Shown: positions 15,021 to 47,640 of the stretch, one piece after another | How positions within the stretch are numbered: the stretch's first letter is position 1 | How the letters are laid out: the number at the start of each line of letters is the position of its first letter | Assembly (NCBI GenBank): GCA_963771355.1 | Contig: CAVYTA010000007.1 | Location: 672,001-736,000 of the forward strand | Length of the DNA: 64,000 nt | From: an uncultured Candidatus Rokubacteria bacterium | Lineage (GTDB): Bacteria; Methylomirabilota; Methylomirabilia; Rokubacteriales; CSP1-6 | Direction of reading: 5' to 3' | Notes under the pieces: model-generated | The model's input: only the letters and a program-made list of their open reading frames with translations | Databases searched by the model: none | Told to the model about the DNA's origin: nothing | Position numbers and translations under genes: made by a program

Positions 15021-15461
15021 GGTGCTGAAGCCGCTCGACACAGTCAGGCTGTTGACTTCCGCTTGCTCGCGGGCCGCCCGGCGCCCAAGGGCCGGCGCTA
15101 TCGCGTCTGGCTAAGGCGGGTTGAGCGGATTGACCGCCAAGCTAGAGCATGGATGGTCCGCTGGGACCAGCGATGGGGCCCGAGCCTGCGCGGGGAGCGC
15201 GACACGTTCAGACGACTTCAAAGACTGACCCGACACACGGCAGGGCGGTTCTAGTGTTGACGTTCTCACTCCCGTGGGAGTTAGACAGCCGCGTGCCACT
15301 TCCCGAGGTGCGGGCACTCTGACCTCGCCCCGCTTGGCTACCAGGACAGTTCTCGGGCGCTCCCAGCCCTCCGAACCCCACTAGGCGGGTCTGACCATGA
15401 CTTTCGAAGAATCTCCGCCTATAGCAAGCCCGGACGGCGTACGTGCGCCCGCTGGGACCCC

Positions 15462-15651
15462 GTGCTAGCCTCCCGGACGTGCCCGGTGTGCCTCAAGGCC
15501 CCGCTGACCAACCGTCAGGAGGTCTGCTCCGGCGGGTGCCGGGCGGCCCGGAGCCGGCAGCGGAAAGCCGAAACCCGGCGGGAACGCGACGCGGAGATCC
15601 GGGCGGCTGCTCGCAGCGGCGCTGAAGAAGCTGCAGGAGGGCGTGCCATGA
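15462..15651 (+). repeat. Copy A of repeated C4 zinc-finger/coiled-coil micro-ORF (one-base frameshift near 15605)
   Basis: MLASRTCPVCLKAPLTNRQEVCSGGCRAARSRQRKAETRRERDAEIRA/LLAAALKKLQEGVP; stop overlaps next ATG (ATGA at 15648-15651). Confidence 0.8.
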
Positions 15652-18600
15652 ATCGGCGAGTGACTCCTGTGAAAGGCAAGCAGAGCCCGAAGCGTCGGGG
15701 TGCAAAGCCTGCGAAAGCGAAGGTCGAAGCCAAGCGTCCGGTCGCCGCACAAGTCGCGGAAACACGAAGGCGCGAGGGTGGGCGACCTGGAGAGGCGCCT
15801 GGCGGAGGCGTTGAAGCGCGAGGATGCGGCGCTGGAGAATCAGACCGCCACCAGCGAGATCCTGCGGACCATCGCGCACGCGCAGAGCGACGTGCAACCG
15901 GTGTTCGACACCATCGTCCGCAGCGCTGCTCGGCTTTGCCACGCCGTCAATGCGGCGGTCTTCCTGACCGACGGCACGATGCTCTACCACCCGGCAAACT
16001 ACGGCCGCTCGCCCGAGGCGCTCGCTGCTGTCCGCGCTCAGTATCCAAAACCCTTGGATGCGGACACGACGCCCGGCAGGGCGATCCTCACGCGGTCGGT
16101 CGTCCAGGTGCCAGACATCGAAGCGCCCTCGGCACACGAGCACGTGCGGCAAGTCGGGCGCCTGCTCGGGTTCCGGAGCGTCGTCGCGGTGCCGATGCTG
16201 CGCGCCGGCGAGGCCGTCGGCGCTATCAACGTGTCCCGCCGGGAGCCCGGAGGTTTGTCGGGCGCTGAAGTGGAGCTCCTGAAGACCTTCGCCGACCAGG
16301 CGGTTATTGCCATCGAGAACGTGCGGCTGTTCAAGGAGCTTCAGGACAAGAACCAGGCCTAAGCAGCGCACGCGAAGTTACGAGGCGCTGCAGCAGCAGA
16401 CGGCGACGAGCGAGATCCTTCGTGTTATCTCGAGCTCGCCGACCGACGTCCAGCCGGTGTTCGACACGATCGTTCGAAGCGCGAGCCGGTTGTGCGGCGG
16501 CGAGTACGCCATCGTCACGCGCTTCGACGGCGAGCTCCTTCATCTCGCCGCTCAGCACAATCCCCGGCCTGGCACCGCTAACGAAACGGCAGGATTCTTC
16601 CCACAGGTCCCGCGCCGTGAGGCATCGATCGCGGCACGCGCACTCATCGATGCTGTAGTCGTCCACGTAGCGGACGTCGAGACCGAGGAACTGGACTCGT
16701 CGGCGCGTGAGACATATCGGCGGGTTATGTTGCGAGCAGCGGTCGCTGTGCCGATGATCCACGAGGGTCGCCCCATTGGCGTCATCGGCGTCTCCCGCGG
16801 GACACCCGGTCCTTTCTCGCGCCACCAGATCGAGTTTCTCCAGACCTTCGCCGACCAGGCCGTCATCGCCATCGAGAACGTCCGGCTGTTCAAGGAGCTG
16901 GAGGCGCGCAACCGCGATCTCACCGAGGCGCTCGACCAGCAGACGGCAACGAGCGAAATCCTGCGCGTCATCAGCAGCTCGCACACCGATCTCCAGCCGG
17001 TGTTCGACGCCATCCTGCACAGCGCCGGTCGGCTATGTGACGCCACGTTCGGCGCCCTTCAGCTCTTCGACGGCGAAGAGCTCACGCTCGATGGACACTA
17101 CGGTATATCGCCCGAAGACGTTGCGATGTTGCAGGCGGAGGTCTTTCCGATGCGCCCGGACGTGGGGAGCAGCATTGGTCGTGCGATCATCCGCCGCGCC
17201 ACCGTGCACATCGAAGATATCCGGAGCGATCCGCAGTTCAAGGTGTCTGCGCTGCAGACCCGCGAGGAGTATCGAACGGCGCTTTCCGTTCCCATGCTAC
17301 GTGGAGGCGGGGCGGTCGGTGTGATCAACCTGTGGCGGCGCGAGGTGCGCCCTTTCTCGCAGACGCACATCGACATGGTGCAGACCTTCGCCGACCAGGC
17401 CGTCATCGCGATCGAGAACGTACGGCTGTTCAAGGAGCTCAAGGCGCGGACGGGGGAACTCACGCGTTCGGTCAACGAACTCACGGCACTGGGCGAGGTG
17501 AGTCGGACGCTCAGCTCATCGCTCGACCTCGAGACCGTGTTGCGGACGATCGTCATCCGGGCGAACCAGCTCGGCGGCACGGCGGGCTGCGTGATCTGGG
17601 AGTACGACGAATCTGGGGAGGCGTTCCGCCTTCGCGCGAGCCACTACGCCGACGAGCGCGACGCCGCGATCCTTTCTGGATCCGGGGGCGTGACTACGAT
17701 TCCGAGGGGACAGGGTCTCACGACCCAGGTGGTTGCTCTGCGACAGCCGGTCCAGATCTCTGATATCGCGGCCGAGGGCGCCTATGACAGTCCCGTCCGG
17801 CAGCCGCTGATCGACGCGGGTCATCGTGCGCTGCTCGGGGTGCCCCTGCTCAGCGAGGACGAAGTCATTGGGGTCCTGGCCGTCACTCGCAAGACGCCGG
17901 GCGAGTTCGAGCCGGATGTCGTCCGGCTGCTCAGCACCTTCGCCACCCAATCCGCCCTCGCCATCCAGAACGCGCGGCTATTTAGGGAGATCGAGGTGAA
18001 GGGCCGGGAGCTGGAGGCCGCCAGCCGCCACAAGAGCGAGTTCCTCGCCAACATGTCACACGAGTTGCGGACGCCGCTGAACGCCATCATCGGATTCTCG
18101 GAGGTACTGAGCGAACGGATGTTCGGGGAGCTGAACGAGAAGCAGGAGGAGTACCTGAAGGACATTTACGCGTCTGGCCAGCACCTGCTATCCCTCATCA
18201 ATGACATTCTCGATCTCTCGAAGATCGAGGCCGGCCGCATGGAGCTGGAGCTGGCCGACTTCCACCTGCCCCAAGCCATCGAGAATGCCCTGGTCCTCGT
18301 GCGGGAACGGGCGCTGCGCCGGCGGATCACGCTGGAGCAGTCGATCGATCCGCGCCTCGGCGAGATGAGGGGCGACGAGCGAAAGATCAAGCAGGTACTC
18401 CTGAACCTGCTCTCGAATGCGATCAAGTTTACGCCCGAGGGCGGCAGGATCGAGGTACGCGCGAAACCCGTGAACGGAGCCGTCGAGGTTTCCGTGAGCG
18501 ATACCGGGGTCGGCATAGCGCCCGAAGATCAGCAGGCGATATTCGAGGAGTTTCGGCAGGTGGGGACGGCAGCGAAGAAGGTGGAAGGCACCGGGCTCGG

Positions 18601-18715
18601 CCTGGCCCTGTCGCGGAAGTTCATCGAGTTGCATGGCGGGAGGATCTGGGTCCAGAGCCAGGTGGACATCGGCTCGACGTTCACGTTCACGATCCCGGTG
18701 CGCCGTCGCGAATGA
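15648..18715 (+). pseudogene. Four-GAF sensor histidine kinase, frame-broken near 15745 and 16360
   Basis: Repeated QTATSEILR..TFADQAVIAIENVRLF GAF units; H-box MSHELRTPL, NLLSNAIKF, DTGVGI and GTGLGL; pieces lie in three ORFs. Confidence 0.8.
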
Positions 18716-18721
18716 GGACGT

Positions 18722-18795
18722 CAAGGCCGCCAAGGCTCTCGGCCTCGCGATCCCGCCGTCTCTCCTGGCAGCGGGCGGATCAGGTGATCGAGTGA
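18722..18795 (+). pseudogene. 3' stump of an ABC substrate-binding protein gene
   Basis: Encodes KAAKALGLAIPPSLL and, after a frameshift, RADQVIE*; matches the C-termini of the five full paralogs. Confidence 0.75.
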
Positions 18796-19781
18796 TGGAG
18801 CGGCGGTCATTCCTTGCTGGTGCTGCCGCGCTCCTCGCCGCGCCGCGCGCCGCCGAGGCGCAGCCGGCGGGGAAGGTGTGGCGGATCGGCTTCCTGGGCT
18901 CAGGAACTCCCACAGGCTGGGGAGGACCCGGCATCGAGGCCATCCGGCTCGGGCTTCGAGATCACGGCTACGTAGAAGGTCGGAACATCAGGATCGAGTA
19001 TCGCTGGGCGGAGGACCGATACGACCGCATACCAGAGCTTGCGGCGGAGCTTGTCCGCCTCAACCCCGACGTCATCATCACCTACGGCACACCGAGCACC
19101 CTTGCCCTCAAGCGCGCGACCTCGGCGATCCCCATCGTCATGGCCATCATCGGCAATCCGGTCGAGAACGGGGCTGTCGCCTCCCTCGCGCGCCCGGGTG
19201 GCAACATCACGGGCTCGTCGTTCTTCTCGGATGAAATCACCGCCAAGCGTTTGGATATCCTGAAGACCGCGCATCCGGCCCTGGTGCGCGCGGGCCTTCT
19301 GACAAGCTCCCGGAATATCGGGACGCCCGGTACCCAGCGAGCCGCGGGCTCCATGGCGCAATCGCTCAAGGTCGAGCTTCAGTTCCTTGACGTGCGCAGC
19401 TCCGACGAGCTGGACGTTTTTCTCACGGGTGTGGCCAAGGGGCAAAGTGATGGCGTGGTGATGAGTGATGAGCAGTTGTTTTCCACCGGTGATGCGCCGA
19501 GGCGAATTGCCGAGTTCACGCTCAAGAATCGGTTGCCGAGCATCGGTCCCGTGGACTACGCTCGCGCGGGCGGCCTGATCGGGTACGGGGTGGTCTGGCC
19601 CGACGTCATACGGGGGTCGATGGCCTTCGTGGACAAGATTCTCAAAGGCGCCAAACCGGCCGACCTGCCGATCCAGCAGGCCACCAAGTTTGAGTTGGTC
19701 CTCAACCTCAAGACCGCCAAGACGCTCGGCCTGACGATCCCGCCGTCGGTGCTGCTCCGGGCGGATCAGGTGATCGAGTGA
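18795..19781 (+). CDS. Orphan ABC substrate-binding protein (ABC_sub_bind/COG2984-like) with twin-Arg-like signal
   Basis: MERRSFL signal; SLARPGGNITG and ILKGAKPADLPIQQATKFELVLN..ADQVIE motifs. Confidence 0.9.
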   Translation: MERRSFLAGAAALLAAPRAAEAQPAGKVWRIGFLGSGTPTGWGGPGIEAIRLGLRDHGYVEGRNIRIEYRWAEDRYDRIPELAAELVRLNPDVIITYGTPSTLALKRATSAIPIVMAIIGNPVENGAVASLARPGGNITGSSFFSDEITAKRLDILKTAHPALVRAGLLTSSRNIGTPGTQRAAGSMAQSLKVELQFLDVRSSDELDVFLTGVAKGQSDGVVMSDEQLFSTGDAPRRIAEFTLKNRLPSIGPVDYARAGGLIGYGVVWPDVIRGSMAFVDKILKGAKPADLPIQQATKFELVLNLKTAKTLGLTIPPSVLLRADQVIE

Positions 19782-19970
19782 CTGGGCCAAATCTGAGAGC
19801 GTTCGAGCGGTTGCTCGAGGCCGAGCCCCTAGGTTCACGGGCTCAAATGATATCCAGTCCCTACGCTCACACACGCACGGGCCCTTCGGCGTCGGCTTCA
19901 TCACGACGCAGATTCCTCGGTTCGAGCCCAATTCATATACGAGGTACGTGCCGGTGACGGAGCTGGTGGG

Positions 19971-20417: not shown

Positions 20418-20489
20418 AAACGGCCGGGTTCAGCACAAAATCAGCACAAGATGCTAAAATCAGCGCGGAACGCCCCGTAAGTCCTTGAC

Positions 20490-20562
20490 GAGCCGTTAGC
20501 TCAGTTGGCAGAGCACCTGACTTTTAATCAGGGGGTCGGTGGTTCGATCCCACCACGGCTCA
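20490..20562 (+). tRNA. tRNA-Lys(UUU); CCA not encoded (followed by CCT)
   Basis: Acceptor GAGCCGT/ACGGCTC, anticodon arm CCTGA-CTTTTAA-TCAGG, T arm GGTGG-TTCGATC-CCACC. Confidence 0.95.
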
Positions 20563-20848
20563 CCTATCTTCTCGCCCAATTGCAACGCATACCTCGGCGT
20601 GGCGAGTGTTCATCACGGTGCTACTCCTGGCGGCGCGCGGGCTCCCGGCTCAGCCGGCGAGGAAGTAGGCGGCGACGGCCATGGTCGCGATCGCGATCGC
20701 GCGAATGATTGTCTGTGCGATGGGGATCATCAGTCGTCCTACTGATGACCATACTCACGCTTCGCGGAGAGCGCTAGAGTCATTCGAGAAAATCTCGCAG
20801 TGTCTCTGCAAAGACAGAATTGCTGAGTGGAAGGAGTCCGCGACGCCG

Positions 20849-21022
20849 CTACTTCTCCACGTCGGGCGGGTAGTCGAAGGCGTGGTTACACGCGGGGCAA
20901 CGCGCTTTATTGGGCATGGCTTCCGTTGCCGCCGTCGTACAAATGCGCGTCCGGCCCCCGCACACGCACTCCACGGTGGCGATGTTGGTCCGTTTGTCCA
21001 GGCTGATCAGTTTCACTTTCAT
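20849..21022 (-). CDS. Small Cys-rich putative zinc-ribbon protein (57 aa)
   Basis: MKVKLISLD..CVC..CPAC; GAGG RBS. Confidence 0.5.
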   Translation of the reverse strand: MKVKLISLDKRTNIATVECVCGGRTRICTTAATEAMPNKARCPACNHAFDYPPDVEK

Positions 21023-21029
21023 GCGCACC

Positions 21030-21197
21030 TCAGCCTGACTTCCGCCGGGCCCCGCCGGGGCTGTATGGCAATGGCTTGGCCCAACATTCTCGGTGCACCC
21101 GCTGGTCGCCGACGAATGGGCACGTGAAGGCATCCGCGATAAGGCGTTCACAGACCGGGCAGATCGGCTTCCCCTGGGCGTCGAGCCGGTTCTTCAA
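21030..21197 (-). CDS. Small putative zinc-finger protein (about 55 aa)
   Basis: CPVC..VHREC motif; GGAGG before a TTG start. Confidence 0.5.
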   Translation of the reverse strand: MKNRLDAQGKPICPVCERLIADAFTCPFVGDQRVHRECWAKPLPYSPGGARRKSG

Positions 21198-22142: not shown

Positions 22143-22146
22143 GGCG

Positions 22147-27006: not shown

Positions 27007-27085
27007 GACCCCGTCGTCTAGCCTGGCCAAGGACGCGACCCTTTCAAGGTCGAGATCGCGGGTTCGAATCCCGCCGGGGTCACCA
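27007..27085 (+). tRNA. tRNA-Glu(UUC)
   Basis: Acceptor GACCCCG/CGGGGTC, anticodon arm CGACC-CTTTCAA-GGTCG, T arm GCGGG-TTCGAAT-CCCGC, encoded CCA. Confidence 0.97.
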
Positions 27086-27737
27086 CCGCAGTTGGTACGA
27101 CCTTCCCGGGCAGGAGCGGCTCCCAAGAGCCCTGCCCGGTGAAGCGATAGCCACGGCGTCCATCCTTCTCGAAGGCCTCGCACGTTAGGCGTCCCACTAT
27201 CAATTTCCGTAGGATCTGGCGCGTTTGCGGCACATGCCGGCCGAGCAGACCCTTAACGTCAGAGGCGCGCGCAACGAGTTCTCGTTCTAGCTGTTTACCG
27301 TCGAGTAAGGCGACCTTCGCGGCCTGCTGAAGTGCCTCCAACTCGCCGATGAGGGTCTTCTTCCTTGTGTCTTCAGTCTTCAGCCTCGAGAAAAGAGATT
27401 CGTTGCGCTCACCCCTGGCGACGGCATCCACCAGGTTGCCAATGTGTGTTTCGAGAAGAGATAGCTCACGCTCGATGGCGGCTCGTCGATCCTGGAAGCG
27501 GTCCTGACCGCCTCTCAGCCGTTGCAGAGCTTTCTCGACCGCCCGAGCCAAGATCCGTTCGTCCAAGGCATCAGCGATCGCCTGGAGTACCACCTGATCA
27601 AGACCCTCCTGATGGATCAGGAGGGAGTTCTGGCAGATTGTCCGCCCACGCTTGTGGTAACGGTCGCAGCCATAGAGCGCCTTGCGCCCGCGCTTGAAGT
27701 CCCTGGTGATCCCGACCAAGGCTCCCAGCAAGTACAA
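27018..27737 (-). pseudogene. Large serine recombinase C-terminal half (zinc ribbon and coiled coil), 5' truncated, reading through att into antisense tRNA
   Basis: YGCDRYHKRGRTICQN zinc-ribbon part, coiled coil, GYRFTG..VVTPAGFEPA. Confidence 0.8.
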
Positions 27738-28169: not shown

Positions 28170-28273
28170 CGCGGCGCGTCGAAGTAAACACGGTGATCTT
28201 TATCGCAATGTGCTGTGGCAAGAACTTGTTGCGCTACCGCGATCGATTCGACAGTAGTAGAGGAGGTCCCGAA

Positions 28274-30331
28274 ATGGCCACGCAGTCCTTGTTGCGGTCT
28301 TCCCGAAGTGCCTTCGCCGCATTGGCAGTGCTTCTCGTCGTTACGGTACTGCCGCTGCACGTCCCGGCTGTTGAAGGGGCGGAGCCCGTCGTTCCTGCTC
28401 AAGGTTCTGCTGATGGCACGCCCTCACCGACTTCAAGAGGTCACGGGCGCGGTGTGATCCGCACGGTAGGAGCGGCTCGCACCGCGAGCCGCCACATCCT
28501 CGTGCAGCTGCATCCGCGCACCGACGAGATGCGGTTCATGCAGGACGCCCACGCCCAAGGCTTGCGCCGGCTGAGCCGTGTGTATGGCACGACGTGGCTC
28601 AGGATGGCTGTCCCGGCGGGAGCCAATCCCGCCCAGGCAGCGGCGGCGGCCCGAACGCTGCCGGGCGTGTTGCGAGCCACGCTGGACTCTGTGGTGACGA
28701 TCAACGACCAGATTCCTCCTCGAGATCCGATCTACAAGAATGACGACGATCCCTCCACGAAGCCATGCGACCCGCTCCTCGAGATCTGTGACCCCTGGAC
28801 GTTGGTCGACCAGTGGGGTCTCTTCAAGGTTGAAGCAGAGACTGGATGGGTCGTCCAACGCGGCGGGCCGGGCGTCGTCATCGCCATCCTCGACAGCGGA
28901 ATCGACCTCGACCATGACGATCTGTGGGCGAAGCTCTGGACGAATCCGGGCGAGGTTCCCGGTAACGGGATCGACGATGATGGCAATGGCCTTGTCGATG
29001 ACGTGCACGGGGCCGATTTCGCCGGCAGCAATGTCGGCGGTCTGTTCGATGACCCTGGCTCCCAGGATGGGAATCCGGATGTTCCGATGGGAGGCGCGTG
29101 GGTCGTGGACCCGACGGCGACGTTCGGGATTCGTTTCGTCGGCGATGCGGCCGCAGGCGACGGGGACGACAACAACCTCGACGGGTTGATTGATATCGGC
29201 GTCACTCACGGAACATTCGTGGCGGGGATTGCCGGTGCCATGACCGACAATGTCAATCCCCAAACGCTTCAGGCCGAAGGCATGGCTGGTGCCTGCTGGC
29301 ACTGTAAGCTGATGCCGGTGCGCATGATCAATGCCGAGGGCTGGGCTTTCGGCTCGGATGCAGCCTCGGCAATCTATTACGCGGCGAACATGGGCGCCCA
29401 TGTCATCAACATCAGCTGGGGCATCGACCTCAGCGGGGCCGATCCGTCCGAGGTGGAGGCGATCCAGGTCATAGCTGACGCCATCGATTTCGCCGCAAGC
29501 CGCGGGGTGATCGTGGTGGCGGCAGCGGGAAACAGCGGCACGGCCGGCCTGCACTTTCCCGCCATCATGAAGAATACGATTGCGGTGGGAAGCTCCAACT
29601 GGCTCGATCGACGTTCTGCCTTCTCCAGTCACGCCGTTCCGGCCGAGATTCCCGATAACGGTCTCGATGATGATGGGAACGGCTGGGTGGATGACGTGCT
29701 CGATGTCGTCGCTCCCGGAGAGCTGATCTGGAGCACTGCCGTCTTGAGCGCGTACGACTCGCTGCTTTACGAACTGCTCGGTCTACCGGGGCTGGAGCCG
29801 GGGACGGACACGTATGGAGCGGCGGATGGCACGTCGTTCTCCACCCCGCTCGTGTCGGGTTACGTGGGGCTCCTCCTCTCACAGAATCCGGGAGCGACGC
29901 TGCGCCAAGTGCGGCAGGCCATCCGCGCGAACGCCCGGGACCTCCTCGACCCGCAGGGCGTTGGGGCTTCGCTGGTGGGATACGATGCCTACTCCGGTTT
30001 CGGGCGGCTCCGCATGGTCGTGACCACGCTGACCCCGGAGCCGAACGCGCCTCCTGTTGCGAATGCCGGCCCCGATCAAGCTGTCTTCGTCAAGGGCAAG
30101 GCGGTGGCCTCAACGGTGACGCTCGATGCTTCGGGCTCGCATGACCCGGATGGCACGCTTGTCTCTTACCAGTGGCTTGAGAACGGCGCTCAGATCGCTA
30201 CGGGGAAAACGGCAGCAGTGAGCCTCGGGATCGGCTCTCACACGATCACGTTGCGAGTGACCGACGACGATCAGGCAAGCAGTGAAGATCAGTTGACCGT
30301 TGATGTCAACAAGCGCGGTGGGAGGAAATAA
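28274..30331 (+). CDS. Secreted subtilisin-like S8 serine peptidase with C-terminal PKD-like domain
   Basis: Signal peptide; triad ILDSG, HGTFVAG, GTSFS; oxyanion AAGN; DDDGNG Ca-binding repeats; LDASGSHDPDG..SYQW. Confidence 0.92.
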   Translation: MATQSLLRSSRSAFAALAVLLVVTVLPLHVPAVEGAEPVVPAQGSADGTPSPTSRGHGRGVIRTVGAARTASRHILVQLHPRTDEMRFMQDAHAQGLRRLSRVYGTTWLRMAVPAGANPAQAAAAARTLPGVLRATLDSVVTINDQIPPRDPIYKNDDDPSTKPCDPLLEICDPWTLVDQWGLFKVEAETGWVVQRGGPGVVIAILDSGIDLDHDDLWAKLWTNPGEVPGNGIDDDGNGLVDDVHGADFAGSNVGGLFDDPGSQDGNPDVPMGGAWVVDPTATFGIRFVGDAAAGDGDDNNLDGLIDIGVTHGTFVAGIAGAMTDNVNPQTLQAEGMAGACWHCKLMPVRMINAEGWAFGSDAASAIYYAANMGAHVINISWGIDLSGADPSEVEAIQVIADAIDFAASRGVIVVAAAGNSGTAGLHFPAIMKNTIAVGSSNWLDRRSAFSSHAVPAEIPDNGLDDDGNGWVDDVLDVVAPGELIWSTAVLSAYDSLLYELLGLPGLEPGTDTYGAADGTSFSTPLVSGYVGLLLSQNPGATLRQVRQAIRANARDLLDPQGVGASLVGYDAYSGFGRLRMVVTTLTPEPNAPPVANAGPDQAVFVKGKAVASTVTLDASGSHDPDGTLVSYQWLENGAQIATGKTAAVSLGIGSHTITLRVTDDDQASSEDQLTVDVNKRGGRK

Positions 30332-30876: not shown

Positions 30877-31089
30877 TCAGGCCGCGAGCGCGACGCCTTC
30901 GATGCAAAACGTTAGCGATGCGTTCCAACCCTCGGAATAACCCCCCGGGGTCACCACCTTATTAGCAGCGGGTGTCGCCAAGATGAGCCGCTCGATTCCA
31001 GCCTGCCCCGTGAAACGGTAACACCGGCCGGCGTCATCTTCCTCCGGCATGAGGATGATTCGTCCCTTAACAGGCGCATCACGCAGCAT
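30877..31089 (-). pseudogene. Serine recombinase 3' fragment spanning the second att core
   Basis: GRIILMPE..YRFTGQ..VVTPGGYSEGWNASLTFCIEGVALAA*. Confidence 0.75.
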
Positions 31090-33537: not shown

Positions 33538-34089
33538 TCACTCGTCGCGGAGCGCCGTGTTGGCCAGGGTCGTGAAGATCGTGTTGAACACGCAGAACGC
33601 GGCGAAGCCGATCATCTCGCGGACGTCATCGGGCGTGAGGCCCTGGGCCTCCATCTCGCGGAAGTCCTTGGGCTTGACGTCCATCGCGTCCAGCGCGAAG
33701 CGCAGCACGTACCGCACGAAGGCCTGTTCCCGCTCGGGGAGCGGCAGGGCGACCGGGTTGGCACAGATGCCGTCCAGCGCGGCCTCGTCGAAGCCCAGCG
33801 CGATCAGGCCTCGGCGCGAGGAGCCGAAGCAGCCGGTGCACCGCCGGGCGTGGGCCACCAGCATGAACGCGAACATCCGGGCCTCCCAGGAGAACCTCGA
33901 GCGTCCGGAGCGCTGGTTGAACAGATTCGCTTCGGCGGTCACCTGGGCCTCGAGGATCCAGGGCGTTGACACGTACGCGAGCCGGCTCTCGGGTACCGTC
34001 GTGATGCCGCGCAGCCGCTTCAGCTCGTCCAGCCAGTGGCACGCCGCGGGCGGGATGTCCTCTTCCTTGGGAAGGTCGAAGAATGCCAT
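33538..34089 (-). CDS. AhpD/carboxymuconolactone decarboxylase-like protein, paralog 2
   Basis: LVAHARRCTGC motif, ERE..VRYV and CVFN; near-duplicate of its neighbour. Confidence 0.7.
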   Translation of the reverse strand: MAFFDLPKEEDIPPAACHWLDELKRLRGITTVPESRLAYVSTPWILEAQVTAEANLFNQRSGRSRFSWEARMFAFMLVAHARRCTGCFGSSRRGLIALGFDEAALDGICANPVALPLPEREQAFVRYVLRFALDAMDVKPKDFREMEAQGLTPDDVREMIGFAAFCVFNTIFTTLANTALRDE

Positions 34090-34092
34090 CGG

Positions 34093-34641
34093 TCAATCCT
34101 CGCGCAGCGCCGTGTTGGCCACCGTGGTGAAGATCGTGTTCATGAGAGCGTGGGCGGCGCAGCCGGCGATCTCCTGCACATCGGTCGGGGAGAAGCCCTG
34201 GGCCTGGAGCTCGCGGAAGTCCTTGGGCTGGAGCTCGCTGGGATTGGTCGCGATGCGAAGCACGTACTTCACGAACAGGCGCTCGCGCTCCGGCAGAGGG
34301 AGCACGGACGGATTGGCGCAGAAGCCGTCGAGCGCCGGCTCGTCGAAACCCAGCTTGGTCAGGTGTCCGCGCGAGGCGCCGAAACAACCGTCGCACCGCC
34401 GGGCGTGGGCGACGAGCATGAAGGCGATCATCCGGGCCTCCCAGGAGAACGCCGACGGTTCCGATGGCCTGAACAGGCTCGCTTCGACGGTCACGCGGGC
34501 CTTGAGGATCTGCGGAGAGGGCGCGTACGTCACCCAGCTCCGCGGCAAGGTGTCGACACCGCGCAGGCGCTTGAGCTCGTCCAGCCACTGGCGCGCCTCG
34601 GGAGAGATGTCCTCGTCCCTGGGGACGTCGAAGAAAGCCAT
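34093..34641 (-). CDS. AhpD/carboxymuconolactone decarboxylase-like protein, paralog 1
   Basis: MAFFDVP start; LVAHARRCDGC motif. Confidence 0.7.
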   Translation of the reverse strand: MAFFDVPRDEDISPEARQWLDELKRLRGVDTLPRSWVTYAPSPQILKARVTVEASLFRPSEPSAFSWEARMIAFMLVAHARRCDGCFGASRGHLTKLGFDEPALDGFCANPSVLPLPERERLFVKYVLRIATNPSELQPKDFRELQAQGFSPTDVQEIAGCAAHALMNTIFTTVANTALRED

Positions 34642-34808
34642 GGGGCACACTTCCTTCCGGCTGAGTACCTGACGATAGATCACGCCTCCGTGCCACGCAA
34701 GTACCGCGGCCGCACACGAAAGCCGATTGACTGCAATCAGCGGCACGGTTCCCCAGACGACCACCGTGCGCACGCGCCCGGGGACACGGGTTTGTCGAGC
34801 TGCCGGCA

Positions 34809-34940
34809 CGCGTCGCGATCACGCCGGGCCGCGGCCTTCCGCTGGCGGCTCCGGGCGGCCCGGCACCGGGCGGAGCAGACCTTTTGGCGGGCGTGGATCG
34901 GGGCCGTCCGGCACACCGGGCACGTACGGGAGGCTAGCAT
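34809..34940 (-). repeat. Copy D of zinc-finger micro-ORF (3' truncated)
   Basis: MLASRTCPVCRTAPIHARQKVCSARCRAARSRQRKAAARRDRDA. Confidence 0.8.
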
Positions 34941-36560: not shown

Positions 36561-36726
36561 CTATGCAACCGCGACTCCGGCCAGCGTGAAGGCGAGGAAT
36601 TCCTCAGCCGGTACAGCGGCACCGCCCGGGGTCACCACATACGTTGGAACCATCGTTCCCCGGTGAAGCGATAACTCCGCTGCCCGTCCTTCGCGAAGGC
36701 CTCGCACGCTAGGCGTCCCACTATCA
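36561..36726 (-). pseudogene. Serine recombinase 3' fragment spanning the third att core
   Basis: Nucleotide match to 27136-27202 (CCCGGTGAAGCGATA; GAAGGCCTCGCACGnTAGGCGTCCCACTATCA); VVTPGGAAVPAEEFLAFTLAGVAVA*. Confidence 0.8.
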
Positions 36727-36892
36727 CGTCGTCGGACCAAGGTCCTATTGCCGGCCCGTGAGGGACGCGCGTTAATTTCACAGGTCGAGCGCGCAGCCCG
36801 AGACCTCAGGGAGGACGACATCATGGGAGTTTTCATGATCGACCCGATGTTGAGCAATTCACATAACACTCACGTTGGTTGAGGAGGCCGTT

Positions 36893-39918: not shown

Positions 39919-40896
39919 CTACTCGATCACCTGATCCGCCCGCGCCAGCACCGACGGCGGGATCGTCAGGCCGAGCGCCTTCGCGGTCTTGAGGTTGATC
40001 ACCAGCTCGAACTTGGTCGGCTGTTCTACGGGCAGGTCGGCGGGCTTTGCGCCCCTGAGAATGCGGTCGATGTACCCGGCGGCACGCCGCAGCATATCGA
40101 CGAGGCTCGCGCCGTACGCCATTAGGCCACCCGCCGTCACGAAGTCCGCGCTCTCGTAAATCGCGGGGAGACCGATCTCCGAGGCGAGCTGCGCGATGCG
40201 CCGGCGCTCCAGCCAAAACATCGGATGGGGATGGACAAGCAGCGCCTCCGGCCGCGCGGCGCGCGCTGCCGCGAGGGCAGCGCCGATCTCGCCCGGCTGC
40301 CGAGCGATGAAGAGCTGGATCCCCAGGCCGAGCCGGGCAGCTTCGCGCTCGATCTCCCGATGCTTTTGGGTTGCGAGGGCGGCAACTCTCCGGAGCCTCG
40401 GCACGGTGTCCTTGAGCAACTGAAGCCGCTTGCCCGTCAACTCGCCGGTTAGATGACTGAAGCCTGTGATGTTCCCGCCAGGCCGCGCCAGGCTCGCAAC
40501 CAGGCCGGCCTCCTCGGGATCGGCGACCGCGACGAACACCACCGACACCGTAGTGGTCACCTTCTTGAGAGCCTCGGCGAGCTCGTTCGAGGCGACTATG
40601 GCGACATCGACGTTCTGCCCGACCAGGTCCCTCGCCGCATGCAGCATCTCCTCGCCCCCGCTCACGGCGCAGCGCGGTACAACGACGTAGTTCTGCTCCT
40701 GGACGTACCCGAGCTCGCGGAGCCCGCCCCGCAGCGCGAGCACCGCGGGAGTAGGGGAATCGATGCCGCAGCCGGGCGGCAGGCCGGGGACGAGGAGTCC
40801 GATCCGCCAGACCTTCCCCGCCGGCTGCGCCTCGGCGGCGCGCGGCGCGGCGAGGAGACTACCTGGGATCATTGCCAGGAAGGTGCGGCGCTCCAT
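39919..40896 (-). CDS. Orphan ABC substrate-binding protein
   Basis: MERRTFL, SLARPGGNITG and ADQVIE* motifs. Confidence 0.9.
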   Translation of the reverse strand: MERRTFLAMIPGSLLAAPRAAEAQPAGKVWRIGLLVPGLPPGCGIDSPTPAVLALRGGLRELGYVQEQNYVVVPRCAVSGGEEMLHAARDLVGQNVDVAIVASNELAEALKKVTTTVSVVFVAVADPEEAGLVASLARPGGNITGFSHLTGELTGKRLQLLKDTVPRLRRVAALATQKHREIEREAARLGLGIQLFIARQPGEIGAALAAARAARPEALLVHPHPMFWLERRRIAQLASEIGLPAIYESADFVTAGGLMAYGASLVDMLRRAAGYIDRILRGAKPADLPVEQPTKFELVINLKTAKALGLTIPPSVLARADQVIE

Positions 40897-41037
40897 CACG
40901 GGTGCTCCCTCAGCTTCTCCAGTGCCGTCTCGAGCAGCCCCCGGATCTCCGCGTCGCGCTCCCGCCGGGCCGCGGTCTTCCGCTGGCGACTTCGGGCCGC
41001 CCGACACCGGCCGCTGCAGACCTCCTGGCCGCCATGC
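40896..41037 (-). repeat. Copy C of zinc-finger micro-ORF (5' truncated)
   Basis: HGGQEVCSGRCRAARSRQRKTAARRERDAEIRGLLETALEKLREHP*; TGATG overlap with the SBP start. Confidence 0.8.
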
Positions 41038-41192
41038 TAGCGCGCCCGCTGCGCCACGGCTAGCGCACCGGCGAGCGCCGAGGGGCCGGAGTCGCGCCTG
41101 CCTTTTGGTGGCGGCTCTGCCAGAACTCTACGATTAGCGGTCTGGCGCTCGCCGATCCAGCGGGGTTTTGGGGTAGACTCGGGGGAATACGC

Positions 41193-42455: not shown

Positions 42456-42526
42456 CCGACACGAACATGCCGTCGCGATTGGCCGCGGTAGATAGTCACC
42501 GATCACCAGGAACGCGCGGCGGTCCA

Positions 42527-43498
42527 TCACTCGATCACCCGATCCGCTCGTAGCAAGAGCGACGGCGGGATCGTCAGGCCGAGCGCCTTGGCGGTCTTGA
42601 GGTTGATGACCAGCTCGAACTTCGTCGTCTGTTCCACGGGCAGGTCGCCCGGCTTCGCCCCCTTTAGAATTCTGTCGACATAGTAGGCGGCCCGCCGGAA
42701 CATGTCAGGAAAGCTCGGCCCATAGGCCATGAGACAACCATCGACTACAAAGGTGCGCTCTTGGCACACTGCCGGGAGCCGACCTTTCGCCATCAGCCTC
42801 AGGATCGTCGTCCGGTGAGCGGCAAAGAGCGGTGACGCCAGTTGGATGACCGCTTGGGCACGCTGCTGCCTGGCGGCTTCAAATGCTCGCTCCAGGTCCT
42901 GCTCCCCTCGCACCTCGAGGACTTGCAGGATGAGCCCCAACGATGGGGCTACCCGCTCGACAGCCTTGACTGCGTTTGGCCTGACCGAATCCCACAGCAC
43001 AGCCACGCGGCTGACCTCCGGAATAGCCTCCCTCAACAGTTGCAGTCGTTTGGTTACTAGCTCGGAGTCTTGAAAGGAAAGTCCGGTGAGGTTTCCGCCC
43101 GGACGCGCGAGGCTGGTGACGAAGCCCTGTTCAACCGGGTCCTCAACGATGGCCATGACAATGGGAATCACGCTGGTGGCGCGCTGAGCCGCACGGATCG
43201 CATGCGGACCCGAGGTCACAATGACGTCAGCCTTAAGCCCGACTAACTCAGCCGCAAGGCCGGGAAACCGCTCTGGCTTGCCCTCGCCCCATCGATACTC
43301 AATAGCGATGTTTTGGCCCTGCACGTACCCGCGTTCACGCAATCCTTCGCGAAATGCCGTGAGCCAGGAGGACATGAGGGAGGAGGTGGCGGTCCCGAGG
43401 AGACCTATAAGGGGAACCTTCCCCGCCGGCTGCGCCTCGGCGGCGAGCGGCGCAACAAGCAGCGCGGCAGCACCAGCCAGGAGCGCGCGGCGCTCCAT
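42527..43498 (-). CDS. Orphan ABC substrate-binding protein (array member 3)
   Basis: MERRALL, SLARPGGNLTG and ADRVIE* motifs. Confidence 0.9.
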   Translation of the reverse strand: MERRALLAGAAALLVAPLAAEAQPAGKVPLIGLLGTATSSLMSSWLTAFREGLRERGYVQGQNIAIEYRWGEGKPERFPGLAAELVGLKADVIVTSGPHAIRAAQRATSVIPIVMAIVEDPVEQGFVTSLARPGGNLTGLSFQDSELVTKRLQLLREAIPEVSRVAVLWDSVRPNAVKAVERVAPSLGLILQVLEVRGEQDLERAFEAARQQRAQAVIQLASPLFAAHRTTILRLMAKGRLPAVCQERTFVVDGCLMAYGPSFPDMFRRAAYYVDRILKGAKPGDLPVEQTTKFELVINLKTAKALGLTIPPSLLLRADRVIE

Positions 43499-44472
43499 CA
43501 CTCGATCACCTGATCCGCCCGGTGCAGGAGCGACTGCGGGATCTTGAGGCTGAGGACTTTGGCGGTCTTGAGGTTGATGACCAGCTCGAACTTGGTGGGC
43601 TGCTCGATGGGAAGGTCGGCGGGTGGCGCGCCCTTGAAGATTCTGTCCACGAAGCTCGCGGCGCGACGATAGTGGTCAGGATAGTTCACTCCGTAGACGA
43701 TCAACCCCCCGGCGAACTCCATGGATGCGTATATCGCCGGCAGGCGATGCTTTGCCGCAAGGTCAACGATGACCCGCTGATTCGCCTGCGTGAGGGAGTC
43801 AAGCCCCACCACGAGCACATCTGCACGCTGCCTGATCGCGCTGTCGAACGCCGGCCCCAAATCTTCAGGCTTTCGCACATCGAGAAGCTGAGGGTGGATC
43901 CGCAGGGATCGCGCCGACGTCTCGACCTCTCTCCACGACGGTGGGATGGACGGGTTGCTCATGTTGAAGAGGGCGGCGAGTCGTACGGCTCGCGGAACGA
44001 GTTCCTTGAGCAGGTCGACCCGTTTCGCGTATATGTCCGTTACCTGGGCGCTTAGCCCGGTGATATTCCCGCCCGGGCGCGCGAGGCTCGCGACGACGCC
44101 CTGCCCTACCGGATCGCCAATCCCCGCCATGACCACGGGAATCGTCGCCGTGGCATTCTTGGCCGCCAGGGCCGCTGGCGTCCCCCTCGTCACGATTAGG
44201 TCCACCTTCAACCGAACCAACTCCGCCGCCAGGCTCGGGTATCGCTCGTCGCGGCCGTCGGTCGATCGGTACTCGATGACGAAGCTTTTCCCCTCAACGT
44301 ATCCAAGGTCCCGCAGTCCCTGTCGGAAGCTATCGACGTTGGCGGCATTTATCGCCGTTGATGTCCTCTCGAGCATGCCGATGCGATAGAGCTTCTCTGG
44401 ATGCTGCGCCTCGGCGGTGCGCGGCGCGGCAATCAGCGCGGCAGCACCAGCCAGGAACGCGCGCCGGTCCAT
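43498..44472 (-). CDS. Orphan ABC substrate-binding protein (array member 2)
   Basis: MDRRAFL, SLARPGGNITG and ADQVIE* motifs. Confidence 0.9.
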   Translation of the reverse strand: MDRRAFLAGAAALIAAPRTAEAQHPEKLYRIGMLERTSTAINAANVDSFRQGLRDLGYVEGKSFVIEYRSTDGRDERYPSLAAELVRLKVDLIVTRGTPAALAAKNATATIPVVMAGIGDPVGQGVVASLARPGGNITGLSAQVTDIYAKRVDLLKELVPRAVRLAALFNMSNPSIPPSWREVETSARSLRIHPQLLDVRKPEDLGPAFDSAIRQRADVLVVGLDSLTQANQRVIVDLAAKHRLPAIYASMEFAGGLIVYGVNYPDHYRRAASFVDRIFKGAPPADLPIEQPTKFELVINLKTAKVLSLKIPQSLLHRADQVIE

Positions 44473-45455
44473 CACTCGATCACCTGATCCGCCCGCGTCA
44501 GCACTGACGGCGGGATCGTCAGGCCGAGGGCGTGAGCGGTGGCGTTGTTGACGACCAACTCGAAACGCGTGGGTTCTTCCACAGGAAGCTGGCTCGGCCG
44601 CGTGCCCTGCAGGAGCTTGCCCGCGTAGAGCGCGGCACGTTCGTACAGGTCCGGAACGTATGGCCCGTACGAGAGGAGGCCGCCCCCCCGGGCGAAGAAC
44701 CAATCCGCCGCCGCGGTGACGACCCGATGCCGCAAGGCAAACAGCGCGATGTCTGGCCTGACCGGCCCGATCAACTGCTCGAAGAGGAGTAGGCCGTCTG
44801 GACGCTCCTGGCCCATCGAGCCGAATGTCTTCTCAAGGTCCCGAGAGGACGTGATCCGAAGAGCAGAGAGCTGCACGCCGAGGGTTCGGGCGGCTCGTTC
44901 AAGACCCACGAACCGCTCCTGATGTAGCTCGATCGTCGGGCTCCAGAGCACGGCCACCCGTGCGAGCCGCGGATTGATCTCCTTGAGAAGCTCGAGGTGT
45001 TTGGCGGCGAGCTGCCCGAGGGGGACGCTCAAGCCTGTCACGTTTGCGCCCGGTCGACCGAGGCTGGCTACCAGTCCCTCGGCCACGGCGTCGGCGACGT
45101 TGACCATGACAATCGGCGTGCTCTTCGTGGCCTGGCGTGCGGCCTGCGTCGCCTCATTGCCAAACGCGACGATAACATCGACTTTTCGCTGAACGAGCTT
45201 TTTCGCCGCGTCCGAGAGGCGGCCGTAGCCAACACCGGCGCCGCTCATGTCTAGCGAGGCGTTCCGGCCGAAGACGTACCCGGCCCGCTCGAAACCTGCC
45301 AGAAACGCGCGGTCCCAGTCCATGACAGCATTTGGGAGGGTCGAGCAGTTGCCCGGGCACAGAAAGGCCACCTTCCCCGTCGGCTGCGCTTCGGCGGCAA
45401 GCGGAGCGGCGAGGAGAGTAGCTGAGGCCATCGCGAGAAAGGTGCGCCGCTCCAT
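44472..45455 (-). CDS. Orphan ABC substrate-binding protein (array member 1)
   Basis: MERRTFL, SLGRPGANVTG and ADQVIE* motifs. Confidence 0.9.
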   Translation of the reverse strand: MERRTFLAMASATLLAAPLAAEAQPTGKVAFLCPGNCSTLPNAVMDWDRAFLAGFERAGYVFGRNASLDMSGAGVGYGRLSDAAKKLVQRKVDVIVAFGNEATQAARQATKSTPIVMVNVADAVAEGLVASLGRPGANVTGLSVPLGQLAAKHLELLKEINPRLARVAVLWSPTIELHQERFVGLERAARTLGVQLSALRITSSRDLEKTFGSMGQERPDGLLLFEQLIGPVRPDIALFALRHRVVTAAADWFFARGGGLLSYGPYVPDLYERAALYAGKLLQGTRPSQLPVEEPTRFELVVNNATAHALGLTIPPSVLTRADQVIE

Positions 45456-45640
45456 CACGGGTCCTCCGTCAGCTTCTTGAGTGCCGCCTCGAGCAGCGCC
45501 CGGATCTCCGCATCCCGCTCCCGCCGGGTCTCGGCCTTCCGCTGCCGGCTCCGGGCCGCCCGACACCGGCCGCTGCAGACCTCCTGGCCGGCGTGGATCG
45601 GCACCTTCTGGCAGACGGGGCATAGCCGGGAGGCTAGCAT
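45455..45640 (-). CDS. Copy B (intact) of C4 zinc-finger/coiled-coil micro-protein, 61 aa
   Basis: MLASRLCPVCQKVPIHAGQEVCSGRCRAARSRQRKAETRRERDAEIRALLEAALKKLTEDP*; TGATG overlap with the SBP. Confidence 0.8.
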   Translation of the reverse strand: MLASRLCPVCQKVPIHAGQEVCSGRCRAARSRQRKAETRRERDAEIRALLEAALKKLTEDP

Positions 45641-45821
45641 GCCCCCTCTAGCAGGCGCACGTACGCCGTCCGGGCTCGCTCCAGGCGGAGTTCCCTCGGG
45701 CCAGGAGCCGACGGCACAGGGGTCGTGGGTGGACCGAGACGGGGACGAGAGTCCTCTGTCCCTCAGGGCGGGTGCGTGGCGGACGAGATCACGCCGACTG
45801 GATCAGGGTGCGAAAACTAAA

Positions 45822-46676
45822 TCAATCAACCAGGGCGCCACGCATAGCGGCTTCCTTGTATTCGAGGTGAGGAGCCGTATATCGGCGCACTTCCTTCAGG
45901 GCCCAGATCTCGGCGTCGCTTAGATCAGGGTGCCAGAGCTGAATCAACAAGACGATTCGAGCGGAATCGCTTTTGTTCCAAGCTTCGTGCTCGAATGAAT
46001 CGTCAAAGACCAGGCACCGGCCCTCCTGCCATCTCACCACTTCGCGTCCTACTCGTAGTTCAGATGCCGGTGTAACAACAAGCCCCAGATGACATGTCAA
46101 GCGTGTGTTCACAGGCCCGCAATGCGGTTTGATGTGAGATTCCGCGTCCAGCACCGAACAAAATATGTTCTCGCTGGGGCCCATAGGCATGCAGCTCTTG
46201 AGGAGGCTGGACGTGCTTGGGCAAACCCGATGAATCGCCTCTTGTTCCTCTCCTAAGACGTAGAAGTACTTGACTCGCCAGGTTCCGGCATCGGTAAGCT
46301 TTTGAGGATGCGGAATCAATCCCCCGCGTCCAATCATATCGAGCAGCTCATCTCGGATTTGCTGATATCCGTCTTCCAATCTCGCAATCCAGGGAATCTC
46401 TCGAGGATCATGAATGGGGAGCGCGCGTAGGCCGGGAAAGTAGCTCACCCGTGGTTTTTGCAGGGGGTGGACATGCGGAAACAGCCGCTTGTCGTAATGA
46501 CTGCGCAGATAAGAGTGCACACGGTCCAGGCTGGATGCCGGGATACCTTTCTGGGCGGCACGGCGCAACAGCCACAACCAAATAAAGTTAAATTTGAGCT
46601 GCTGACGTCGGCTCCGGGGAACGAGCTTGAGTCCGTAACGGGCGGATTGTTCTAGTATATTCACCGACCCCTCCAA
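45822..46676 (-). CDS. Aspartyl/asparaginyl beta-hydroxylase family 2OG-Fe(II) dioxygenase
   Basis: IKPHCGP.N.RLTCHLGL, W.EG..LVFDDSFEHEAWN and WHPDL motifs; AT-richer than flanks. Confidence 0.85.
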   Translation of the reverse strand: MEGSVNILEQSARYGLKLVPRSRRQQLKFNFIWLWLLRRAAQKGIPASSLDRVHSYLRSHYDKRLFPHVHPLQKPRVSYFPGLRALPIHDPREIPWIARLEDGYQQIRDELLDMIGRGGLIPHPQKLTDAGTWRVKYFYVLGEEQEAIHRVCPSTSSLLKSCMPMGPSENIFCSVLDAESHIKPHCGPVNTRLTCHLGLVVTPASELRVGREVVRWQEGRCLVFDDSFEHEAWNKSDSARIVLLIQLWHPDLSDAEIWALKEVRRYTAPHLEYKEAAMRGALVD

Positions 46677-46728
46677 TTAGGAGAAGAGGCAAAGATGTCT
46701 CGAATTATCGGGCCTCCGAGACCTCCCT

Positions 46729-46757
46729 GAGAACAACCAAGAGAACAACCAACAACC
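46729..46757. repeat. Tandem repeat GAGAACAACCAA x2 plus CAACC
   Basis: Read directly at 46729-46740 and 46741-46752. Confidence 0.8.
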
Positions 46758-46952
46758 GTAGAAGGGCCTTCACCTAGGGACGAAAAGGTATTCGCATTCA
46801 CGAACCGTGTCAAGGGCGAGGTTCCGCTTTAGGTGGCTGATTTTCAGGGGTCCGCGCGTCGATTCAGCGAAGGGAGCTGCGGGGTTACCGCGAGTGCTCG
46901 GCGGTGCCGTCGGCGAGGCTGCGACCCGTCGCCCGGTATTGCCCGACCTGAG

Positions 46953-47408
46953 CTAGTCGACTTTCGACACGTCGACGGTGCCGGCGATGGGCTGGCCGTC
47001 GACGAGCAACGCGTAGGGCCCGACCAGATCCGGACCCGTGCCCAGCACCGTGCCCAGCGAGAAGCCGCCCACGCCGCGGCGCTGCGCGGTCAGGGCCAGT
47101 CCCTCGGTCTTCGGATCGCCGAAGATCAGCTGGTCATTGGCGAGGGTCCCGGTGAACTCGCGCCGGACCGTGGGCAAGCCGAACCACGCGGCCGTCGCGG
47201 TGAGCCGATCGCCGCTGCCCCGGGCGATTTGCAGGGTGAATCTGGCGGAGACCCCGCCGCTGCGCCAGGAACCGGTCCAGCGCCCCACCAGGGCCGCCGC
47301 TTCGGGGCTGGTCGTGGTGAGGGGGACGGTGTGCGCGCAGCCGGAGGAGAGGGAGAGCGCAACGATCAGGGCCAGGTATCGAGCGGCGGTCGCGGACGAT
47401 CGCATCAT
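46953..47408 (-). CDS. Hypothetical lipoprotein
   Basis: Hydrophobic signal with LSSGC lipobox; LVGRWTGSW. Confidence 0.6.
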   Translation of the reverse strand: MMRSSATAARYLALIVALSLSSGCAHTVPLTTTSPEAAALVGRWTGSWRSGGVSARFTLQIARGSGDRLTATAAWFGLPTVRREFTGTLANDQLIFGDPKTEGLALTAQRRGVGGFSLGTVLGTGPDLVGPYALLVDGQPIAGTVDVSKVD

Positions 47409-47538
47409 AGGCTCCGATAGCATTCCTACCACGAGACGGCCCACGAGACAGCAAGGTGGGATCGGCGCCCTGCCGACGGCGCGGTGGCCGGCTATCGCTG
47501 GCCGGCGCCGACGAGGGCATCCGCTTCCATCTCGGGGC

Positions 47539-47640
47539 GTGGTAGGGTCCCGGAGATGCCCGATCTGCCGCACGGCTGCCGCCCGCCGGGAGGTATGCAG
47601 CGGCAACTGCCGGGCCGCCTGGAGCCGGCTTCGGAACGAG
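47539..47640 (+). repeat. Copy E (diverged) of zinc-finger micro-ORF
   Basis: VVGSRRCPICRTAAARREVCSGNCRAAWSRLR. Confidence 0.65.

Follow-up and report, generated by a model that had tools for sequence, protein, structure and literature searches.

Repeated remnants of a zinc-finger gene from tRNA-integrated elements of Rokubacteria, with a promoter-like motif in its first codons

A 64,000-nucleotide stretch of the genome of an uncultured Candidatus Rokubacteria bacterium (contig CAVYTA010000007.1, positions 672,001 to 736,000; hereafter, the window) contains five dispersed copies of a small zinc-finger gene, several of them lying directly ahead of accessory genes referred to here as cargo. With a probability of roughly 0.6, these repeats are remnants of a gene that belongs to integrative elements, kept for an embedded promoter-operator that drives the cargo. 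An earlier note on this DNA had placed one finger-and-helix motif at five sites, and homologous DNA is present at all of them, with tblastn E values of 5e-36 to 2e-5 (query, the 45455-45640 copy), far above the next-best background on the contig (E 0.15). The motif itself (CPxC...CSxxC followed by the helix) holds for a single site; only in the window copy 45455-45640 does a single frame cover the four cysteines and the entire helix, and the other four are frameshifted or truncated. The copies, their motif sites, and their cargo are as follows.

15397..15651, plus strand: zinc-finger copy A; original ATG kept at 15397, frame broken in two places, one between the dyad and GTG 15462, the other close to the 3' end
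15438..15447, plus strand: 10-bp dyad (likely operator) of copy A, 18 nt before the -10-like box
15463..15471, plus strand: extended -10-like box (TGnTAnnnT) of copy A, within V-L-A-S codons
15648..18715, plus strand: cargo GAF-domain histidine kinase, ATGA-coupled, split over at least three frames
18795..19781, plus strand: cargo ABC substrate-binding family protein, with the tail of another zinc-finger copy ahead (TGATG)
34809..34940, minus strand: zinc-finger copy, 3'-truncated, without the C-terminal helix; -10-like box kept (34931-34936), without dyad
39919..40896, minus strand: cargo ABC substrate-binding family protein, TGATG-coupled
40896..41039, minus strand: zinc-finger copy, 5'-truncated, CPxC lost; a TAnnnT of uncertain origin (41034-41039) abuts the junction
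42527..45455, minus strand: cargo, three tandem ABC substrate-binding family genes (44472-45455, 43498-44472, and 42527-43498), each joined by TGATG
45455..45690, minus strand: zinc-finger copy B; 61-codon core 45455-45640 intact, N-terminal codons to about 45690, original start lost
45631..45639, minus strand: extended -10-like box of copy B, with a predicted transcription start at about 45623-45624
45656..45665, minus strand: 10-bp dyad (likely operator) of copy B, 19 nt before the -10-like box
47539..47640, plus strand: divergent zinc-finger copy, 3'-truncated, without the C-terminal helix; -10-like box 47543-47548, no dyad

Stop and start codons overlap as the earlier note had described, as ATGA at 15648-15651 and as TGATG at 45457-45453 and 40898-40894. 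The kinase reported behind the first copy does follow through such an overlap, although it no longer forms one frame. Likewise, the 23-bp block shared by copies A and B is identical at 15427-15449 (plus strand) and 45654-45676 (minus strand), 12 and 13 nt before a GTG and an ATG, but these are not the original start, and the block does not lie upstream of the gene. The gene spans about 83 codons, not 61; 62 of 120 listed homologues are 83-84 residues long and start about 22 codons earlier, and in distant relatives, the first cysteine mostly lies 20-34 residues from the start (86/128). Together, these lengths and positions put the start about 22 codons further up and the block within the gene.

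The gene is not confined to the window. Its source genome holds 13 copies (11 protein-level matches and two DNA-only fragments), 12 of which lie no more than 21 kb from a tRNA gene, a distance that spans 22% of the genome and was picked as a cut-off after seeing the data. By profile search, 37 of 183 genomes of the order carry the gene. Related loci are mostly from Rokubacteria, with single ones in Nitrospira, Gemmatimonadales, and Limnocylindria according to the names in database records, and the family comprises 774 clusters at 50% identity. Among 49 non-redundant cores, the ratio of non-synonymous to synonymous change (dN/dS) is 0.27 for 113 pairs with a proportion of non-synonymous differences (pN) below 0.1, 0.39 for 196 pairs, and 0.43 for 343 pairs, all at pN below 0.35; it reaches 0.64 for the 524 most distant pairs, which are near synonymous saturation. 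The zinc-finger gene encodes a real protein.

In the structure model of this protein, a disordered N-terminus is followed by a small finger and a single 36-residue helix (46-81), with a confidence score (pLDDT) above 90 for finger and helix. All four cysteines are invariant in the homologue alignment, and their CxxC...CxxxC pattern runs into the helix, as in DUF2116/treble-clef fingers. DUF2116 (PF09889, a probable treble clef) and YacG have in common with it a CxxC-x(9-16)-CSxxC finger followed by a helix; unlike either, the zinc-finger protein has a basic/amphipathic helix of 36 residues and a low-complexity N-terminus whose codons hold the DNA motif described below. DUF2116 is matched weakly by 20 of 21 family members, with the window copy at 19.7 bits and P0001 at 21.4 bits against a gathering cut-off of 26.8, and two listed homologues carry a precomputed PF09889 mark. 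YacG (NF002362) scores 14.3 bits, well under its equivalog cut-off of 79. Foldseek returned no match at E 0.001, the best hit (Z 4.5) being dominated by the helix, and the fold searches gave nothing specific. In the Atlas, the top clusters are unnamed and largely phage-associated; DUF2116 appears in 19% of one cluster at 0.89, which is a lead only. A DNA-binding regulator, one of the note's suggestions, seems the likeliest role for the protein.

The gene's first codons carry a conserved motif at the DNA level. Loci were collected by their downstream peptide, which means that the upstream motif was not selected for; 38 of 101 rows that were more than 95% alike or too short were dropped. In the 63 non-redundant loci that remained, 52 have a perfect CGYACGTRCG dyad, a sequence with 29 sites in the whole 5.5-Mb genome. 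Where both dyad and TAnnnT box are present, the two lie 19 nt apart in 36 of 45 loci and 18 nt apart in five. Among 87 distinct copies with four cysteines, 77 have the dyad and 72 the box, and the figures for host windows (n=2093) are 14% and 1.3%; by cluster (n=26), the counts are 21 and 18. The motif is spelled in codons that are rare in the source genome (GTA 1.8%, CTA 0.9%, and CGT 5.1%), and variants of the dyad change letters while keeping the symmetry (CGCACGTGCG, CGTACGTACG, CGTGCGCACG, CATACGTATG, and CGTTGCAACG). Its trace in 128 distant proteins reads ARA in 51, VRT in 30, VRA in 8, and ART in none. Spacings of 7, 10, 16, and 19 nt all keep the reading frame, suggesting that the stretch is both translated and read as DNA.

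Comparison of close copies points the same way. Motif sites had changed at 1 of 255 positions in core-intact copies and at 8 of 193 in core-broken ones, as against about 10% and about 12% for the core itself; in the 19 core-broken copies, this amounts to 4% versus 12%. (A count of N-terminal frameshifts from the same comparison was discarded as alignment noise.) Thus, the dyad and TAnnnT box are better conserved than the protein, even in broken copies. Furthermore, in three genomes (G000 C6:33410, L147, and L145), the motif is joined almost directly to a cargo start, with the finger gone and the ribosome-binding site kept. The host's tRNA promoters carry TTGACA-like and TAnnnT boxes and are sigma-70-like. 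Finally, the residue at helix position +4 tracks the type of dyad, being hydrophobic in 42 of 51 ARA proteins and in 3 of 30 VRT proteins; this comparison excludes 47 of the 128 proteins, in which neither ARA nor VRT is clear.

The gene very probably belongs to elements integrated at tRNA genes. The fuller loci run along one strand, from an excisionase-like helix-turn-helix gene through primase/helicase and packaging-type genes to the zinc finger, a variable slot, an XRE gene, several small genes, and finally an integrase that borders with its 3' end on the attachment (att) site at the tRNA. The packaging-type stretch varies and may hold HNH, large terminase, head protease, capsid, a ribosomal S21 homologue, or a small nuclease-like gene. 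Replication or packaging genes lie upstream in 14 loci (L026, L029, L031, L036 of the source genome, L082, L120, L124, L126, L189, L190, L191, L195, L198, and L208), and the zinc-finger gene marks the end of this module. Many other loci have several kb of upstream DNA without such genes and look like remnants; element genes were called with a custom caller and a limited reference set, so that misses are likely. Large terminase is found in L029, L031, L036, L120, and L198, and head protease in L189; with only some open reading frames (ORFs) scanned per element, capsid was seen in L124 only, and small-terminase matches were weak only. Direct repeats formed by tRNA halves bound L031 (38 bp, 12.3 kb), the source-genome element at tRNA-Val (42 bp, 14.3 kb), and L190 (47 bp, 10.8 kb). 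These elements are likely phage satellites.

Several individual elements are worth describing. The 14.3-kb element of the source genome (G000 C6:683894-698266, L036) is att-bounded at the 5' half of tRNA-Val, encodes a DnaB-like helicase, a replication initiator, and a large terminase along with zinc-finger copy K, and is preceded by a second, decayed element. L124:8018-13510, from a Nitrospira-named record, combines capsid (the only one seen in the family), zinc finger, XRE, and serine recombinase at tRNA-Met. Homologues of ribosomal protein S21 lie a few genes before the zinc finger at L029:8616-8894 (PHROGs E 9e-9), L189:11080-11268 (E 1e-5), and L031:6973-7230 (by likeness). At the other extreme, L199:11879-13387 is a 1.4-kb unit that runs from tRNA-Val to an 85%-identical att copy and holds only a decayed zinc-finger head, with dyad and TAnnnT intact, and one substrate-binding gene; L194 is a similar 4.2-kb unit at tRNA-Thr. 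A recurrent small ORF of the KPLPEELARDAIAHEE type occupies the slot between zinc finger and XRE in another subfamily (L128:10969-11145, L112, L114, L117, L109, L097, and L037). Strong canonical promoters lie directly before XRE in L029, L126, L189, L190, L191, and L198, with lineage-specific inverted repeats between the -35 box and the start that are likely XRE operators.

Returning to the window, it holds a pile of element insertions at tRNA-Lys and tRNA-Glu, as can be seen from the following features.

20490..20564, plus strand: tRNA-Lys(TTT), whose 5' half is the attachment site in relative L059
27007..27085, plus strand: tRNA-Glu(TTC), 13 nt of whose 3' end are found again, as attachment scars, at 30945, 36626, and 37448
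27018..27737, minus strand: large serine recombinase, C-terminal part, ending in the tRNA-Glu site as in L082
35055..35478, minus strand: large serine recombinase, N-terminal remnant, 78% identical to L082 in DNA and ending 113 nt before the 34809-34940 zinc-finger copy
36617..36793, minus strand: another serine recombinase remnant (C-terminal), which stops at an attachment scar

Counting the gene itself, the 3' end of tRNA-Glu occurs four times in the window (27074, 30945, 36626, and 37448), which identifies positions 27-48 kb as a pile of insertions. L082 has the same layout as the window (zinc finger, GAF kinase, serine recombinase, and tRNA-Glu) and is 78-90% identical in DNA to the window pieces. 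The 15.4-kb copy is a remnant ahead of tRNA-Lys, a position common to G006. The serine recombinase frame crosses the antisense strand of tRNA-Glu to its stop (27018-27085), so that the attachment site lies inside the 3' end of the gene. Just before tRNA-Lys (20428-20489), repeated GCACAA words resemble the 3' ends of the tyrosine integrase genes of L023 and L031, and words of this kind also stand ahead of tRNA-Thr and tRNA-Val on this contig, which suggests that they are traces of lost integrases. Other window genes include a secreted subtilase with a PKD domain (28193-30331), flanked by two tRNA-Glu attachment scars, and two tandem paralogues of about 183 residues with CxxC and no Pfam match (33538-34683), directly behind the 34.9-kb zinc-finger copy. 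A second repeated, cysteine-rich small ORF (about 55 residues) occurs in island tracts of the source genome, at 20849-21022 of the window, L038:2106-2273, and L038:6476-6643.

The earlier note had read the roughly 230-bp unit as a portable head or recombination hot spot that moves by itself and captures genes through translational coupling. Thirteen copies in one genome, several of which start a few bases before the dyad, would suit such a unit, as would the att-bounded L199 unit with nothing but the head and one cargo gene. Coupling is indeed common; in the 51 of 63 non-redundant loci with enough downstream DNA to be scored, the junction is TGATG in 21, ATGA in 10, GTGA in 5, and other in 15, giving a stop/start overlap in 36. 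However, the 5' limit of homology falls at points between -41 and +78 relative to the dyad in 39 close copies, no transposase, terminal repeat, or flanking repeat was seen beside the copies, and the fixed ends of an insertion sequence or miniature inverted-repeat transposable element are thus missing. This scatter largely refutes a portable head, and "portable" and "element end" give way to a gene internal to larger integrative elements, whose att sites explain its mobility. The idea of gene capture fares no better, as the cargo is mostly one inherited family; the next recognizable gene is a substrate-binding one in 26 of the 51 loci, XRE in 4, and a GAF protein in 3, with no reference matched in 18. 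Moreover, of 44 substrate-binding hits in the source genome, 17 have a recognizable island-type start (27 were not classified), and all 17 are TGATG, with seven after a zinc-finger tail, seven after another substrate-binding gene, and three after something else. Because TGATG is equally common after both kinds of gene, coupling appears to be an inherited junction and not a capture device. Overall, a self-moving head is very improbable. An even smaller chance is given to the note's suggestion that the protein is a directionality factor for the large serine recombinases, which would be consistent with serine recombinases following the gene in L059, L082, L124, L128, and the window, and with directionality factors having no common fold and often moonlighting, according to one report (bioRxiv 10.1101/2024.08.21.608926). 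This role is disfavored by the tyrosine integrases that follow the zinc finger in more loci (e.g., L023, L026, L029, L031, L035, L036, L054, L071, L097, L126, L189, L190, L191, L195, L198, and L208), by the separate excisionase-like helix-turn-helix genes, and by one subfamily that occurs with both types of integrase.

Two further explanations accept the elements and question what the motif does in them. The dyad could be read by some other factor, such as a host or helper-phage regulator, XRE, or the packaging machinery, with the finger doing an unrelated job, e.g., a YacG-like or NinG-like interaction with the host. Weak matches of 10 of 21 members to YacG (best E 1.7e-4) and of 11 of 21 to NinG lean in this direction, and the dyad occurs once per element and not at other element promoters. 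Packaging-type genes lie upstream of the zinc finger, and other phages are known to carry packaging signals within small genes. Set against this are the symmetric changes of the dyad between lineages in related hosts, which suit an element-encoded reader; XRE operators that are different inverted repeats at XRE's own promoter; a YacG score of 14 bits against a cut-off of 79; and a TAnnnT box at a preferred 19-nt spacing, unexpected for a packaging site. A reader other than the finger is unlikely. Neutral hitchhiking, in which copies survive beside useful cargo and tRNA hot spots and the motif mattered only in the intact element, is more doubtful still. It would account for four of the five window copies being broken, together with the kinase behind one of them, and for three lacking the dyad, and recent decay leaves a short motif little time to change. 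It fits poorly with motif sites having changed threefold less than the core in core-broken copies, or with the deletions in three genomes that dropped the finger and spared the motif and ribosome-binding site.

The mechanism proposed for the favored reading, a zinc-finger gene whose remnants are kept for their promoter-operator, has parts of unequal strength. An internal promoter in the gene's first codons is quite probable; TAnnnT would be a sigma-70 extended -10 firing into the cargo slot, and the finger protein would sit as a dimer on the dyad, its operator. That the finger binds its own dyad falls a little short of an even chance. In an active element, the finger protein would be made from the upstream core transcript, dimerize through its basic-then-amphipathic helix, bind the dyad, and repress the internal promoter. 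With the dyad 7, 10, 16, 18, or 19 nt upstream of the box, it overlaps the polymerase footprint, and spacing this variable is easier to reconcile with a repressor than with an activator. Once an element is dormant or decayed, finger production would cease and cargo would be expressed. As the core is lost, selection on the cargo would then preserve the two ends of the gene, the promoter (5') and the ribosome-binding site (3'), which would be why many islands show the gene heading cargo. In this sense, the note's "expression head" partly survives; the conserved dyad and -10-like box outlast the protein, and promoter-only remnants precede cargo, but the head does not move freely.

A number of observations weigh against this proposal. 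The copies compared are kin and not independent, so that p-values for motif retention overstate the case, and some frameshifts could be assembly errors. Covariation of helix and dyad comprises 8-9 changes, with only one independent pair on supported branches, and may reflect shared descent; the window's own subfamily has an asymmetric dyad. The TAnnnT box is absent from 8 of 26 clusters, and both the capsid-bearing L124 and copy K, which belongs to the most complete element of the source genome, are among the cases without it; no -35 consensus was seen at the internal box. Canonical promoters with inverted repeats stand before the XRE genes themselves, and so the internal box is not needed for XRE, yet it is kept in cargo-free elements. 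Across the 183 genomes, the dyad-19-TAnnnT pattern is not enriched (40 hits versus 46 for the reversed control, counted by hand). As for the satellites, most elements have no dedicated capsid gene among the ORFs scanned, and two protein scans of IMG/VR found no relative, a single DNA-pattern hit being a chance match without the gene. In the source genome, the composite motif with up to two mismatches gives 72 hits versus 155-162 in shuffles, with no host regulon seen; the composite pattern is informative only through its link to the gene. RNA-library contigs (four runs, two studies) cover the gene and cargo of relatives, some ending at 45603-45612 and others crossing the predicted start, and they consequently give no start, strand, or level.

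Other candidate readings of the motif were abandoned. The internal promoter as the promoter of XRE was dropped, given the TTGACA-17-TAnnnT-type promoters of the XRE genes. A Z-DNA reading, based on alternating purines and pyrimidines, is weakened by CGTTGCAACG, which is symmetric but non-alternating at the 19-nt spacing. A leaderless ORF in the -1 frame running into the cargo (44472-45623) was set aside, as open alternative frames are expected at 70% GC, and the purine at its first base also fits start-site preference.

Like tycheposons (bioRxiv 10.1101/2020.12.28.424599), the Rokubacteria elements are small, target tRNA genes with tyrosine or, less often, large serine recombinases, carry a replication module and cargo or packaging genes, and pile up by tRNA genes as they degenerate, building islands; they have the site-specific integrase at tRNA genes, optional replication module, and cargo expected of the class. 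Unlike in tycheposons, the genes form a row on one strand that closes with an outward-pointing integrase, its 3' end abutting the att site or tRNA in L023, L029, L031, L190, and L198; some elements have large terminase, cargo and packaging genes occur together, and the cargo slot is marked by a conserved zinc-finger gene that contains the dyad. Phage-inducible chromosomal islands (PICIs) and their capsid-forming variants (cf-PICIs; PMC10085698) likewise have an integrase, a small regulator, a primase-replicase, and packaging-type genes in 10-15 kb, and the scanned ORFs of the Rokubacteria elements show no tail or holin, as in those islands. Integrase and att repeats are present, as are regulator and primase-replicase by phrog_66 helix-turn-helix, XRE, and primase/helicase hits (named PICI profiles were not used). 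The differences are that regulator and primase lie at the end opposite the integrase, that large terminase occurs without detected capsid in most elements, and that no single element showed the full cf-PICI head set among the ORFs scanned. The variable slot between the last core gene and the integrase recalls the cargo hot spot of P4 between integrase and psu-delta-sid (PMC13586616). None of the P4 core genes (Psu, Delta, Sid, Ash, and Alpha) was among the PHROGs hits of the scanned ORFs, no dedicated profiles having been run, and unlike in P4, the cargo consists of substrate-binding proteins and sensor kinases, co-directional with the core, with a promoter-like motif in the last core gene. 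Taken as a whole, the elements resemble tycheposons or PICI-type satellites with a P4-like cargo slot, and match the gene order of neither.

In lambda (cII/PRE) and P2 (Cox/Pc), too, a small phage regulator governs a promoter lying over coding sequence near the repressor-integrase genes. These regulators show no sequence or fold relation to the zinc finger, whose internal promoter would lie on the sense strand, with a dyad, not a direct repeat, and an XRE gene with its own promoter. Cox is both repressor and directionality factor (bioRxiv 10.1101/2024.08.21.608926). A literature search of open-licence full texts, without supplements, found no description of the zinc-finger family and none of a satellite in Rokubacteria.

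For the mobile elements of Rokubacteria, a soil lineage that is uncultured, the family supplies a marker gene and a consistent order of genes; should nothing more than the element context hold, the find is a modest one, a new family of a familiar kind. The gene-embedded dyad, with its natural compensatory variants, is a small, directly testable putative regulator-operator pair, and a concrete mechanism is proposed for cargo expression that persists as elements decay into tRNA islands. It is tempting to go further and picture undescribed Rokubacteria satellites whose zinc-finger repressor carries operator and promoter in its own first codons, changing in step with the recognition helix, and becomes a constitutive head on decay, with att-bounded minis such as the 1.4-kb L199 unit moved in trans by intact relatives. 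This fuller picture is tentative and, as a whole, rather doubtful. If true, moved minis of head and cargo would be one engine behind the expansion of the substrate-binding family in an abundant soil lineage.

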